DNA of 24,850 nt from IMG/VR virus record IMGVR_UViG_2565956726_000010. One strand, written 5' to 3'. Numbering within the stretch: the stretch's first letter is position 1; the number at the start of each line of letters is the position of its first letter. This document shows positions 19,003 to 24,850 of this stretch, one piece after another. The notes under the pieces are model-generated. The model did no database searches. It was given only the letters and a program-made list of their open reading frames with translations, and was not told the DNA's origin. The position numbers were made by a program, and so were the translations under genes. The DNA comes from a virus (Duplodnaviria > Heunggongvirae > Uroviricota > Caudoviricetes).

Positions 19003-20760
19003 TCACAGAATTAACAGGTCCTCATCAGGATCAAGCGTGGACAGAAAGTCATTCACGCCCCCTCCATTTACCAGAAAGCGGCTCATGGCTGTAAAAAGCG
19101 CAACAGGGCCGTCGATTTTGGCTTCCGGCGTGGATTTATTCGGGAAGATGTTGTCGTTTTTGTCCGGTTTTACAGTAACGTTAGACATCATCCAGTTCAT
19201 GACCGGATGATTGCTGTGATGGAAACGCCCGGCATAAACCAGTGATTCCGTTTCCTTCATGGCCTCTGACAGATTGCGGACCGTCTGCGGAACCTCCACC
19301 AGCGGTATCCCTTCTTCAGCCAGTGCCAGGCTGAACTGCATTGCGCTCCACGGGTCAAATCCCAGTTCCCTGAGGTTTTCACCGCCAATCCATTCCAGTA
19401 AGTCACTTTTTATCTGAGCATGATCGATAACATCACCATCCGTCAGGATGAGCTTATCCATCTCCGCCCACTTCCGGTAAAGTTCTGCCTGCTGCCGCGA
19501 GCATCGTTCCAGCCGTCCTTCCGGAAGCCAGAATTTAAAATCAGCATGAACATGTCCGTTATCGGTTCGCCAGAGTTTTGCCGCCGCACAGATATCAATC
19601 TTATGAGCAAGGTCGACGCCGACCCACATGGGATATGTTTTCAGCTCATGTTGTGGAGCAATGTATTCGCACTTCTCCCACTTAATCATATCCATCCAGG
19701 CAGATTCGGCAGTGACCCACACATTCATGTGTTTGGTAAAAAAATTCACCCGCGCAGAGACCTGCTCCTTCGCTTTTTTCGCCAGACGACGCAGATCATC
19801 CCAGCGTTTACAGATGCCCAGGCCAGGATTCGCTTTCTGCCAGACCGTTTCATCAAACGGATCATCTCCCTCATCAAGCGTGTAAATGATCGCAAAGTAA
19901 GAGTCGTCTTTTACAGCGCCCTCCACGTCGCTGTTATAGCCTCGCAATACCTTGATGGCGTAATCACGCTGCTCGTAACAAATCCCTTCCTTGTTAAAGC
20001 CAGCCGTGGTGATACCAAATAACAGGGACTGCAGACGGGCACCGGTTGCCGTTTCCAGAACGTCCCACACGTCGCGGGTTTTATGTGCATGCAGCTCATC
20101 AATAATGGCGCAGTGGATGTTCAGACCGTCCAGGTTGTTTGCATCCGAGGAAAGCGGTTCAAATTTTGATGCGCTCTGCTCCTGGTAAATCGCCAGCTTG
20201 TTGAAATCAAACAACCGCCCGAGTGTCGACCGGGCTTTTCTGACCATATTTTTGGCGTCTTCAAACACGATTCTGGCCTGGTCACGCGTGGTTGCGGCTG
20301 AATACACCTCAGCTCCGCCTTCACTATCTGCCCCCGTCATATACAGGCCGATACCCGATGACAGTGTTGATTTTGCGTTTTTACGGGCGACTTCGTTGTA
20401 CGCCGTCCGGAACCGGCGCACCATCACCGGACGTCCGCTGCCATCGCTGCGCATGACAACTTCCCCGGTTTCTTCATTGACCAGCGGAATGACAAAACCA
20501 AAAATATTAATGAGGATAAATACATGCCAGTCCATCAACTCAATGGGCTGGCCTGCCAGTGCCCCTTTTACATGAGGCACAAATTTGTAGAAATTCAGGA
20601 TGTGCTGCGCACGGGGTTCACTGAAATAAATCCCCCGCTTTTCGCCGTACTTCAGATCATCAAGAAAACGCTGGCAGGCCAGGCGGACAAATTCGCCAGC
20701 AACAATTTCTCCTGCAACAACACGTTCGGCGTAGCGGATCCCGTCAGCCACTTTTGCCAT
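19003..20760 (-). CDS. terminase large subunit
   Basis: 585 aa; Walker A-like region near the N-terminus and acidic nuclease-type motifs; ATG 20760..20758 overlaps the small terminase stop (TGATG). Confidence 0.9.
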   Translation of the reverse strand: MAKVADGIRYAERVVAGEIVAGEFVRLACQRFLDDLKYGEKRGIYFSEPRAQHILNFYKFVPHVKGALAGQPIELMDWHVFILINIFGFVIPLVNEETGEVVMRSDGSGRPVMVRRFRTAYNEVARKNAKSTLSSGIGLYMTGADSEGGAEVYSAATTRDQARIVFEDAKNMVRKARSTLGRLFDFNKLAIYQEQSASKFEPLSSDANNLDGLNIHCAIIDELHAHKTRDVWDVLETATGARLQSLLFGITTAGFNKEGICYEQRDYAIKVLRGYNSDVEGAVKDDSYFAIIYTLDEGDDPFDETVWQKANPGLGICKRWDDLRRLAKKAKEQVSARVNFFTKHMNVWVTAESAWMDMIKWEKCEYIAPQHELKTYPMWVGVDLAHKIDICAAAKLWRTDNGHVHADFKFWLPEGRLERCSRQQAELYRKWAEMDKLILTDGDVIDHAQIKSDLLEWIGGENLRELGFDPWSAMQFSLALAEEGIPLVEVPQTVRNLSEAMKETESLVYAGRFHHSNHPVMNWMMSNVTVKPDKNDNIFPNKSTPEAKIDGPVALFTAMSRFLVNGGGVNDFLSTLDPDEDLLIL

Positions 20761-21242
20761 CAGTCTCTCGCTTTTAAAAGCTCTGCCAGCGGATCAACAT
20801 TATCCGGTCCGGCGGTATTTACTTTTGCCCGGCTTGCCGGTGACATACCAAATTCTGCAAGCATCGCCCGGATCCGCTTCCAGGCATCCGCTTTCATCGC
20901 AGCAGCCGGGTGTGCCTTAATCAGCACATCACCGTTCTGCGTTTCCGAGCGGTAGGTGTACCCCTCAACATCGAGTGTTTCGCAGTGATGCCGGTATTCG
21001 GTATAGGCTTCCACCAGTAGCTCAAGCGCACGCGCATCAAGCTGAGAAATGATCCCTTCCGCATTCAGCTCTTCCGCCATTCGCCTGAACCAGTACTTCC
21101 CCTGCGCCCCTAAATGTTGCGGAATTTTAGGGAGACCTTTTTCATCCTTTTTAGCGGTTTTTTTGAGGTCTTTAACTGGCCGCTTTGAGGGGTTGCCTCG
21201 TATCAAATGCAGGCGTGGCGGGATTTTCGGGGGTCCAGACAT
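20760..21242 (-). CDS. terminase small subunit (P27-like family)
   Basis: 160 aa basic N-terminus (PKIPPRLHLIRGNPSKRPVKDLKK) directly upstream of and coupled to the large terminase gene. Confidence 0.8.
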   Translation of the reverse strand: MSGPPKIPPRLHLIRGNPSKRPVKDLKKTAKKDEKGLPKIPQHLGAQGKYWFRRMAEELNAEGIISQLDARALELLVEAYTEYRHHCETLDVEGYTYRSETQNGDVLIKAHPAAAMKADAWKRIRAMLAEFGMSPASRAKVNTAGPDNVDPLAELLKARD

Positions 21243-21389: not shown

Positions 21390-21740
21390 TCAATTGATGC
21401 GTTCGCGCGCTGTTTTTGCTTTATGACAGGGCCAGCACAGACTCTGCAGGTTACTGTCTGCATCTGTGCCACCATGAGCTTTCGGAATGATGTGGTCCAC
21501 AGTTCTGGCTTCAACGGCTCTCCCATTGCGCAGGCAGTTCTGACACAGATGATTATCACGCTTCAGTATGCGCGCACGTATGGCATCCCATTTCGAGCCA
21601 TAGCCACGCTGGTGGCGGCTCAGTCCGCGTTGATGCTGTACCCATCCTTCGCCACGATGTTTATCGCAGTAACCAGAACTGTCTGTGGTTGTACCTGCAC
21701 ATCCACGCTTACGGCAGGCGCGTGGGATTAGTGCTGGCAT
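21390..21740 (-). CDS. HNH endonuclease (terminase-associated)
   Basis: 116 aa with Cys pairs and the HNH core (CQNCLRNGR...VDHIIPKAHGGTDADSNLQSLCWPCHKAK); positioned just upstream of cos/terS as in HK97 gp74. Confidence 0.85.
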   Translation of the reverse strand: MPALIPRACRKRGCAGTTTDSSGYCDKHRGEGWVQHQRGLSRHQRGYGSKWDAIRARILKRDNHLCQNCLRNGRAVEARTVDHIIPKAHGGTDADSNLQSLCWPCHKAKTARERIN

Positions 21741-21758
21741 GTTTCGCCCTTATATAAA
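21728..21758 (+). promoter_or_regulatory. candidate sigma70-like promoter for the plus-strand moron gene
   Basis: TTAGTG then 17 nt then TATATA(AAT), about 120 nt upstream of ATG 21879; by-eye match only. Confidence 0.25.
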
Positions 21759-21878
21759 TCAAAGGTGACCTGCATTGAGTATCTCCATGGAATAGATTTG
21801 CTGCTGATATGAGACAGATCAATAGACTTCATGAGCCAACGGGTGTAGATATTACTTTTTACTTCAGAGGGTTAACTC

Positions 21879-22418
21879 ATGGATATTAAAGATAAAATCA
21901 ATACCATTTTGTTATGTGACATTGCCATCCACCTAGGTATCGAAACTGATATTGATCCACAGCTTGTTAAATATGCTGTGTCATCTGGTAATGATTGGGT
22001 TATCAAGGCCGAATATTCACATTTGGATGTTGACGAACCAAGTAAAGAAGATCGTGATTTTGTTACTGCTGTCTTGAATATGTATCGCGGACTTTCCAAT
22101 GCTTTCAGGAAACTTAGTGATGACGAGCAAAAAGAATTAGTCCGTGACCATCATCTAAAAATACATGATGGGGCAATTCAGCTCCCAGGTTTCGACGGTA
22201 ATAATGAATGCGATTACTTCAGTATCATTGAGGCATATCAGAAAATTGATCGCTTCCCCGAACAGAAACAGCCCATTGCCAATACTCATTCACGTACAGA
22301 ACATCTCTATAACGCAATGCTTGATGAGTTTAAGAAAATTGACGCTGTAAATCGAAGCTGGGATTTATCGAAGGAAGAACTGGCATCCATTCTTTCCACA
22401 GCTCCACGCAGTTTCTAA
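21879..22418 (+). CDS. YfbU-family (UPF0304)-like protein, 179 aa; moron on the opposite strand to the phage late operon
   Basis: ATG 21879 with AGAGG Shine-Dalgarno ~8 nt upstream; AT-rich coding sequence; by-eye alignment to my recollection of E. coli YfbU across four blocks ([24 protein letters not shown] ~ [34 protein letters not shown] ~ [29 protein letters not shown] ~ [29 protein letters not shown] ~ LSANEINQII); followed by a hairpin terminator. Confidence 0.6.
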   Translation: [179 protein letters not shown]

Positions 22419-22423
22419 GTGCT

Positions 22424-22690
22424 TTAGGCGGGTTTCCAACCCGCCTTATTATGCTCGTATATAGAGAAGGAAGCACCCAAATTAACCAGCGCGGATTTCT
22501 TTTCCTCAATACGGCTGTTAAGTTCAGCAACTGCATGCGGGCGTATGGCCTCAAGAAAAGCACTATATTGATAGGCAGACTGGATTGTCACACCAAGCCC
22601 TGCACCACTTTCCAGTATACCTTTCTGTCGCTGTAGCTCTTTCATCTCGTTATAGATGTAATGTGCGTTACTTAGGTTTTCTACGTTCAC
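22424..22690 (-). CDS. hypothetical 88-aa protein (GTG start) convergent with the YfbU-like gene
   Basis: Protein-like helical composition; AGGAAG about 10 nt upstream of GTG 22690..22688; alternative ATG at 22645 gives 73 aa; its last codons overlap the terminator hairpin, which lowers confidence. Confidence 0.35.
   Translation of the reverse strand: MNVENLSNAHYIYNEMKELQRQKGILESGAGLGVTIQSAYQYSAFLEAIRPHAVAELNSRIEEKKSALVNLGASFSIYEHNKAGWKPA
22426..22447 (+). terminator. intrinsic terminator after the YfbU-like gene (possibly bidirectional)
   Basis: AGGCGGGTT-TCCA-AACCCGCCT followed by TATTATG, 8 nt after the plus-strand stop codon; it overlaps the 3' end of the convergent 88-aa ORF. Confidence 0.5.
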
Positions 22691-22845
22691 GCCCTAAGTT
22701 CTTCCTGCAGTTAGCCTGCACTGATTTGTTATGCGCCAATATGTCCCGCTTCGTCTGTTGCATTATCATAAGTAATAGCGTAGGTTGACACCTTGGCTCT
22801 CTTTCGCCACCGGCGAATCTTTAGCGGATTATCCTTGGCCGGTTT

Positions 22846-23313
22846 TTATCTGAGACATTGCTCACGAATGTATAGCTGTGCCCCTTCCAGTTGCTTCTGC
22901 ATCGTCATCAACCGTTCTCTGAGGGTGAAATAATCCCGTTCAGCGGTGTCTGCCAGTCTGGGGCTGGTTGCATTATCCACGCTGGTGGGTCCGGTGGCTT
23001 CACGCACGGCTGCGGAGCAACTGGCATTGACCCGCAGGCGCTTACGACCAGCGGCAACATCAGCGCGCAGAGTTTCATTTTCAGCTTTCGCATTGGCTAA
23101 TTCTCTCGAGTACTTTGCATCGAGCGCAGCAACATCACGCTGACGCTGTTGCATGTCAGCGATGGTGGCAGTCGCCTGCTTCAGCTCACTGACTTTTTTA
23201 TCACGCTGTTCTTTGTAGGCGATGGCGTTATCACGGTAATGATTGACCGCCCACGACAGGCAGACGATGGTGCAGATAACCAGAGTATAAATAATCGCTG
23301 CGACTCTGCTCAC
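22846..23313 (-). CDS. Rz: i-spanin Rz
   Basis: Aligns to lambda Rz ([33 protein letters not shown] vs lambda [33 protein letters not shown]); start taken as GTG 23313..23311 overlapping the endolysin stop; the ORF track's upstream extension begins at a TTG. Confidence 0.85.
22908..23093 (-). CDS. Rz1: o-spanin Rz1 (lipoprotein embedded in Rz in the +1 frame)
   Basis: 61 aa [22 protein letters not shown]... with lipobox Cys and a proline-rich segment, C-terminus ...[15 protein letters not shown] as in lambda Rz1; entirely inside Rz. Confidence 0.85.
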
Positions 23314-23843
23314 TGATCTATCCCCCAACAGGCTAATGCGCTTTCCTGGTCACGACGAATAACCTGTCCATAGCAGTTATTTGAACGTATGCGGCAATCG
23401 CGCCCACCATCTTTTATCCACCAGCGAATCGCCTCGCATGCGCCCTTACGATCACCGGCATTCAGCCGCTTATAAAACGTCGACGGGAAACACTTACCGG
23501 GGCCAATGTTATAGGGACAGAATGACGCTATACCCGCTTTCTGTGGTTCGGTCAGTGGTACTTTAATATTGCGCTCTACCCATGCCAGCGCCTTATCACG
23601 TTCAATAGCGTTAACCTGGTCGCATTTTTCCTTCGACAGCTTCATTCCCGGTATGACGGGCTTACCATCCACCATTGTGGCACCCCGACAGATGGTCCAG
23701 ATGCCGGCCCCATCGCGGTATGCCGTTGTGTGGTTACCTTCTTTTTCATCCAGAAACTGGTCGAGAATATCAGGCGCGGGCGCACCGACGGCAATCAGTG
23801 CCAGAACGGCAGCCGACAGGCCGTATCTGATTTTTGCGTTCAT
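23310..23843 (-). CDS. R: endolysin, T4-lysozyme-like glycosidase with N-terminal SAR (signal-arrest-release) segment
   Basis: 177 aa; weakly hydrophobic Gly/Ala-rich N-terminus ([18 protein letters not shown]) followed by a catalytic region with E...D...T spacing ([20 protein letters not shown]), as in phage 21 / P1 SAR lysozymes. Confidence 0.85.
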
Positions 23844-24284: not shown

Positions 24285-24850
24285 TGGATTTGCCCCTATA
24301 TTTCCAGACACCTGTTATCACTTAACCCATTACTGGCTTGCTGCCGTAGATATTCCCGTGGCGAGCGATAACCCAGTGCACTATGCGGATGCCATTCGTT
24401 ATAATGCTCGAACGCCTCTGCAAGGTTCTTTGCTGCCGTTAACCCGTCTGGTTTGGGCATGACACTGATGTAGTCACGCTTTATCGTTTTCACGAAGCTC
24501 TCTGCTATGCCGTTACTCTCCGGACTCCGCACCGCCGTGCTCTTCGGTTCAAGCCCCAACATCCGGGCAAACTGCCGTGTTTCATTAGCCCGGTAGCATG
24601 AACCATTATCCGTCAGCCACTCTACTGGAGACGCCGGAAGCTCGTTGCCGAAGCGGCGTTCCACCGCTCCCAGCATGACGTCCTGTACTGTTTCACTGTT
24701 GAAGCCGCCCGTAGTGACCGCCCAGTGCAGTGCCTCACGGTCACAGCAGTCCAGCGCGAACGTGACTCGCAGTTTTTCTCCGTTATCACAGCGGAACTCG
24801 AACCCGTCAGAGCACCATCGCTGATTACTTTCTTTCACAGCCACTCTGCC
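24285..24850 (-). mobile_element. IS2 insertion sequence, right-end portion (element continues beyond the window)
   Basis: Terminal sequence tggatttgcccctatatttccagaca at 24285..24310 matches the IS2 right inverted repeat as I recall it; the adjacent ORF translates to the C-terminal part of IS2 transposase InsD. Confidence 0.9.
24296..24850 (-). CDS. insD: IS2 transposase InsD (orfB, DDE integrase core), 5'-truncated by the window edge
   Basis: Translation ...[66 protein letters not shown]...[36 protein letters not shown] is near-identical to my recollection of IS2 InsD; the first codon in the window is GTG (Val), not a true start. Confidence 0.9.

Follow-up and report, generated by a model that had tools for sequence, protein, structure and literature searches.

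Kamadhenu (2024), a single-gene 180-aa protein with the YfbU fold (PF03887) carried by the Lactococcus plasmid pUCCL624_130, was experimentally shown to act as an abortive-infection-type anti-phage defence; phages escape it via SSAP mutations, and phage replication, transcription and translation are unaffected. The chromosomal yfbU gene of E. coli (b2294; crystal structures 1WPB and 4LR3; NCBIfam equivalog NF003936) was reported as necessary for mazEF-dependent death following DNA damage (PMC2646832), and its protein fractionates in higher-order assemblies (PMC3210124). The chromosomal protein has also been linked to ribosome interactions. The window analysed here, a stretch of 24,850 nucleotides from IMG/VR virus record IMGVR_UViG_2565956726_000010, covers the late region of an E. 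coli prophage that is lambdoid and has head genes of the HK97 type; in this region a YfbU-family protein is encoded on the plus strand and every other credible gene lies on the minus strand (Table 1). The window protein and Kamadhenu both match PF03887 and comprise 179 and 180 aa, respectively; their likeness lies in shared family, fold, size and mobile-element carriage rather than in directly compared sequences. Kamadhenu is carried by a Gram-positive plasmid in a host of another phylum, whereas the window gene belongs to an enterobacterial prophage, and the defence phenotype is Kamadhenu's alone. We infer, with a probability of roughly 0.55, that the window protein is a lysogen-expressed, Kamadhenu-like anti-phage defence. 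The preliminary description had proposed a role in phage-host or phage-phage conflict; this is plausible and is the best reading of our analysis, but the claim that such a role would be new is outdated, as Kamadhenu precedes it.

Table 1. Features of the prophage late region around the YfbU-like gene (coordinates refer to the window).
Feature	Coordinates	Strand	Evidence and remarks
Tail fibre, Lom and tail genes; capsid, protease and portal genes		-	Prophage late region
TerL	19003-20760	-	
TerS	20760-21242	-	
HNH endonuclease	21390..21740	-	phrog_144 4e-40, RefSeq annotation; left boundary of slot
Moron cassette, 1,135-bp insert	21741..22875	.	blastn against vB_EcoM-606R7 and Evi; replaces 72 bp of the empty site
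Upstream intergenic region with conserved blocks	21741..21878 (138 bp)	+	Alignment across relatives
Candidate promoter	TAGACT 21823-21828, 17 nt, TAGATA 21846-21851	+	Only 7/12 consensus matches
Shine-Dalgarno AGAGGG	21866..21871	+	Read from sequence; 7 nt before ATG
YfbU-family protein CDS	21879..22418	+	179 codons, ATG to TAA; phrog_6084; identical to RefSeq WP_000351660.1
phrog_5415 gene, 88 aa, convergent	22424..22690	-	phrog_5415 2.9e-37; same insert
GC-rich hairpin, 9-bp stem, 3-nt loop	22426..22446	+	Starts 8 nt past stop codon; RNA fold -20.1 kcal/mol, z -2.5
Rz spanin	22846..23328	-	Pfam PF03245 Phage_lysis 167.6 bits; right boundary of slot
Rz1 embedded in Rz	22908-23093	-	ORF list
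Lysozyme	23310-23843	-	
YdfR/DUF1327 gene		-	Lysis side of slot

The product of the plus-strand gene is a soluble, acidic (pI 4.9), hydrophilic two-domain all-helical protein of the YfbU/UPF0304 family. The distant YfbU homology that had been claimed by eye is borne out by the Pfam model PF03887, which scores the window protein at 46.3 bits against a gathering cut-off of 25 and is matched by all 29 aligned homologs, and by a profile built from homologs, which reaches 1WPB and 4LR3 at E 2.5e-9 over residues 54-173. The predicted model of the window protein matches both crystal structures in its two-domain all-helical fold, a comparison that the preliminary description had put forward as a check. 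The alignment behind the earlier estimate of roughly a quarter identity to E. coli YfbU was right; the pairwise comparison with the K-12 protein gives 21% over 122 aa at E 0.044, and the N-terminal domain is not alignable with YfbU at the sequence level in the profile search. A profile was needed to reach 1WPB, since a single-sequence phmmer search against PDB returned a spurious stathmin-like repeat match alone. The homology is statistically significant only by profile and structure methods, and it is already on record in the RefSeq label "YfbU family protein", which the gene bears in all 225 E. coli genomes that carry it; a literature search for the RefSeq accession or PHROG 6084 found no paper. 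The window protein is a full-length member of phrog_6084 (8e-83), to which 183-aa relatives at ~30% identity also belong, and because this PHROG is without functional annotation, membership adds no mechanism. As for a confident match to a different family, which the preliminary description had named as refuting, the search returned only the Cfr10I/Bse634I restriction endonuclease model (PF07832), below threshold at 18.4 bits against a cut-off of 27 (E 0.0015). This candidate was rejected: the match occurs in only two of the 29 homologs, and the all-helical model gave no match to a nuclease fold.

The window gene is not the chromosomal yfbU orthologue. Its product scores 34.8 bits against the equivalog model NF003936, for which the cut-off is 90. 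Every one of 5426 complete E. coli genomes has the chromosomal gene, and 225 of them also carry the window gene, always on the chromosome and at 95% identity or more. In K-12 yfbU lies in the context hxpA-yfbU-yfbV-ackA, the window gene instead in a prophage late region. The two proteins are homologous across the whole fold and have the GFD...E and Y144 motif positions in common, but they are only 21% identical, and at the positions of N108 and H137 (window numbering), residues typical of the wider family, K-12 YfbU has Ala and Gln. In an alignment of 310 family sequences, G104, F105, D106, N108, E110, N135, H137 and Y144 are 91-99% conserved, and by this measure they are the best candidates for a functional site. 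The chromosomal YfbU with a solved structure is thereby atypical, since its Ala and Gln replace residues that are 95-97% conserved among the 310 collected members.

The window gene is under strong purifying selection. Phage relatives whose proteins are 75-94% identical give dN/dS values of 0.04-0.13; their synonymous sites are saturated or nearly so, and the full-length reading frame is retained from 100% down to 28% identity. Many E. coli chromosomes contain the window DNA at 100% identity, as do two induced phages, vB_EcoS-611R1 and vB_EcoS-689R5, and relatives of the gene are encoded on 176 IMG/VR contigs. An exhaustive profile search collected 2,127 cluster representatives at E <=1e-3, of which 853 at E <=1e-10. 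A subset of ~225-240 aa (P0064, P0070, P0074 and ~20 others) has a ~55-residue N-terminal extension before the YfbU-like domain.

The YfbU-like gene is a moron, as shown by its presence/absence polymorphism, foreign base composition and antisense placement. The Rz and HNH genes of phages vB_EcoM-606R7 and Evi are nearly identical to those of the window and lie 42 bp apart (blastn), the GC content drops to 36-40% (0.36-0.40) over the gene against 50-55% (0.50-0.55) in the flanks, and the gene runs antisense to the late operon; the earlier view of a prophage moron in reverse orientation is thus upheld. We measured the Rz-HNH gap in 80 HNH-anchored IMG/VR loci. The site is empty in 28 loci (gap of 45 bp) and is occupied by the YfbU-like cassette, with Rz adjacent, in 12 (1,108 bp), the gene being found in 15 of the 80 loci overall. 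Other contents are an antisense GNAT acetyltransferase of 160 aa in six loci (1,119 bp; for example, L108:4060-4545, minus strand), an antisense Bor lipoprotein in two (856 bp; PF06291 at 104 bits; for example, L125:4179-4520, minus strand), small late-strand ORFs in two (~470 bp; L117 was inspected) and, in one locus, a single small late-strand ORF without matches in Pfam or PADLOC (345 bp). Rz is not adjacent in 23 loci that have other arrangements and no YfbU-like gene. The GNAT- and Bor-bearing slots belong to phages with nearly identical HNH genes.

With contents ranging from empty to YfbU-like, GNAT and Bor genes, the Rz-HNH slot is a hotspot for lysogen-expressed cargo, and the antisense Bor found there in related phages identifies it as the bor slot. 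Lambda bor follows Rz in the antisense direction, and lysogens express it. The YfbU-like gene follows this moron concept in its slot (after Rz and before the packaging genes), its antisense orientation and its presence/absence polymorphism; Bor, however, is a small lipoprotein (PF06291), whereas the YfbU-like product is a cytoplasmic helical protein unrelated to it in sequence and structure.

The expectation that YfbU-like genes would recur in prophage moron slots held well beyond the closest relatives. A flanking late gene is recognisable in 69 of the 78 retrieved IMG/VR loci, and in 69 of these 69 the YfbU-like gene occupies the same slot on the opposite strand. The arrangement with lysis genes on one side and HNH, TerS and TerL genes on the other is kept at 28-39% protein identity, and slot and orientation persist even where the terminases are 22-36% identical to that of the window; ORF maps of further relatives' loci agree with this conserved placement, and Providencia and Enterobacter prophages with lambda-type GpA terminases have the same arrangement. 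The immediate neighbours differ by locus and include phrog_5415, phrog_717-like, phrog_23128, phrog_5650, phrog_34403 and phrog_6581 genes and a glycosyltransferase, from which we conclude that the YfbU-like gene behaves as a single-gene module. Several distant family members, as well as core yfbU, lie in ordinary chromosomal contexts. Other distant members are found by phage late or packaging functions: on a 524-kb plasmid of Bacillus mycoides, the gene (L085:3995-4504) follows an ArpU late regulator on the same strand; in a Megasphaera prophage (L174), it lies just upstream of TerL, and in a Pseudomonas prophage (L175), between DnaB and TerL, being co-oriented with TerL in both.

The upstream intergenic region contains the blocks TGTGAG, ATAGACTT and GATATTA, which are conserved upstream of the YfbU-like gene in relatives, and relatives with as little as 58% protein identity keep the ribosome-binding site in the form CAGAG(G/A)G. 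A consensus scan for a sigma-70 site of the YfbU-like gene was negative on the plus strand, and the promoter listed in Table 1 is therefore a candidate only. The hairpin past the stop codon is followed by UAUUAU, which makes it terminator-like for the plus-strand transcript, and a T-run is absent on the minus strand; the strict terminator scan did not call it. This hairpin is encoded by the last ~12 codons of the convergent phrog_5415 gene, which fall outside the PHROG profile, as if the ORF read into its neighbour's terminator. The phrog_5415 gene, which has no match in Pfam or PADLOC, was considered as a toxin/antitoxin-like partner and rejected. It adjoins the YfbU-like gene in the closest relatives (~89% identity and above) and in most of those at 92-94%, is displaced by ~1.6 kb in a 93% relative (L033) and was not detected beside relatives at 82% identity or below; farther out, unrelated genes replace it.

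If the window protein is a Kamadhenu-like defence, the following mode of action can be proposed. The YfbU-like gene would be transcribed in the lysogen from its own promoter, and opposing transcription of the late operon would switch it off during the prophage's own lytic growth. The SSAP of a superinfecting phage, or its DNA intermediates, would trigger this single-gene system directly or indirectly, and the protein, acting like Kamadhenu, would then interrupt infection at a late step through an abortive-infection-type response. Modest guilt-by-association support for a defence role comes from two relatives: the one at 62% identity (L042) is adjoined in the same lysis-to-packaging slot by a Ser/Thr-kinase-like protein (PADLOC mad6 at 8.5e-34, PD-T4-6 at 3.9e-30, and Stk2), and that of P. 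corrugata adjoins a ThsA-like SIR2 protein. In L042 the kinase-like protein lies beside a phrog_5650 protein with a weak PDC-M21C match (L042:7721-8488 and L042:6990-7724, both on the minus strand), and a glycosyltransferase moron is found on the other side of the YfbU-like gene. Location alone does not imply defence, as the slot also carries non-defence cargo (bor, GNAT). Searches for a lactococcal counterpart returned no Lactococcus match by tblastn against plasmids with the window protein or the Enterococcus YfbU protein, and no Lactococcus-labelled match in a large-database search with a Firmicute profile. PADLOC-DB 2.0.0 (2023), the sole catalogue tested, has no model matching the window protein, its distant relatives, K-12 YfbU or the Enterococcus plasmid protein. 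If the protein does provide Kamadhenu-type defence, then a prophage-borne immunity gene missing from this catalogue has gone unrecognised in ~4% of sequenced E. coli strains and in many other Enterobacterales, and the YfbU fold becomes accessible in E. coli/coliphage genetics, including its trigger (possibly SSAP), the GFD-N-E/N-H/Y site and the link to host YfbU and MazF. If it does not, the gene is one further moron of unknown function.

An unlikely but credible alternative is that the gene is a lysogenic-conversion factor, i.e., a paralogue of the host's core YfbU that would modulate how the lysogen dies under stress, or a function tied to its ribosomes; it might do so by adding to assemblies of host YfbU or by mixing with them. 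The ties of chromosomal YfbU to DNA damage and mazEF death, to higher-order assemblies and to ribosomes agree with such a role, as do the occupation of the same slot by bor, a host-fitness gene, and an orientation that fits expression in the lysogen. However, the one family member from a mobile element that has been characterised by experiment acts against phages, and co-assembly with host YfbU is doubtful given the low identity of the two proteins and an N-terminal domain that cannot be aligned at the sequence level.

Phages are known to counter host defences with divergent copies of host proteins. The window protein could accordingly be a decoy that mimics the host "death protein" YfbU and blocks a YfbU- or MazF-dependent abortive response to the benefit of the phage, and the reported requirement of host YfbU for the death pathway is in line with this. 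We regard a decoy as rather improbable, because a gene that runs against the late operon and is not part of the early region is poorly arranged for lytic action, and because the mobile forms retain N108 and H137 of the motif, whereas K-12 YfbU has other residues there, the opposite of what a degenerate decoy would show. Moreover, core YfbU is not established for the hosts of many relatives (Pseudomonas, Megasphaera, Firmicutes).

The constant position between the lysis and packaging modules, and the recurrence of a terminase- or lysis-adjacent position in Enterobacterales, Pseudomonas, Megasphaera and a Bacillus phage-like plasmid, could also indicate an accessory of the phage's own late functions in lysis timing or DNA packaging. 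That is very unlikely, as close relatives whose HNH and terminase genes are almost the same lack the gene entirely (the 28 empty sites), its transcription opposes the late operon, and the family extends to non-phage plasmids and to chromosomes. Finally, a decaying, functionless hitch-hiker ORF is excluded by the selection data, namely dN/dS of 0.04-0.13 at saturated synonymous divergence and a full-length frame with invariant motif residues kept from 100% to 28% identity.

Beyond the single-gene form, 29 of 80 species-representative loci have a conserved ~166-aa ORF directly before the YfbU-like gene and in the same orientation (L184:5465-5968, L188:5468-5968, L206:5469-5969 and 26 more among L173-L252), in very diverse taxa that include Pseudomonas, Psychrobacter, Marinomonas, Alteromonas, Thauera, Arcobacter and a Bacillota MAG. 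The encoded protein has a hydrophobic N-terminal segment and no match in Pfam or PADLOC, and together with the YfbU-like gene it looks like an undescribed two-gene module. On Enterococcus plasmids, a very common YfbU-family gene (~270 plasmid records) is directly followed by a ~170-aa ORF, also with a hydrophobic N-terminus; two of these downstream ORFs (L004:5523-6035 and L084:4529-5044) are 28% identical to each other, and similarity to the upstream partner of the proteobacterial form was not detected for either. The surroundings of the Enterococcus gene include Fic-family and resolvase genes. No partner-like ORF was found beside the YfbU-like gene in the 78 viral loci or in the window. A broader and doubtful proposal is that UPF0304/YfbU as a whole is an immune family, comprising solo prophage and plasmid forms and two-gene forms, with one Abi mechanism sensing phage recombination proteins or DNA intermediates. 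A domesticated copy would then be seen in core yfbU of the enterobacteria, the "death gene" linked to mazEF. If this were true, the E. coli prophage members of phrog_6084 would make the proposal directly testable in the best genetic model.

Two further observations concern the ends of the window. A 264-aa ORF at 124-918 on the plus strand overlaps an opposite-strand tail-fibre gene, has no Pfam match and is probably not a gene. At the other end, similarity to the prophage of E. coli strain 4/4, which is intact, extends no further than 24284 and so reaches only 23 bp into the holin S gene at its 3' end, and the remaining region (24285-24850) contains an IS-type integrase-core (rve) ORF at 24296-24844. 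From this homology stop and the rve ORF beyond it, we conclude that holin S of the window prophage is broken by an insertion sequence, which may render this prophage lysis-defective.
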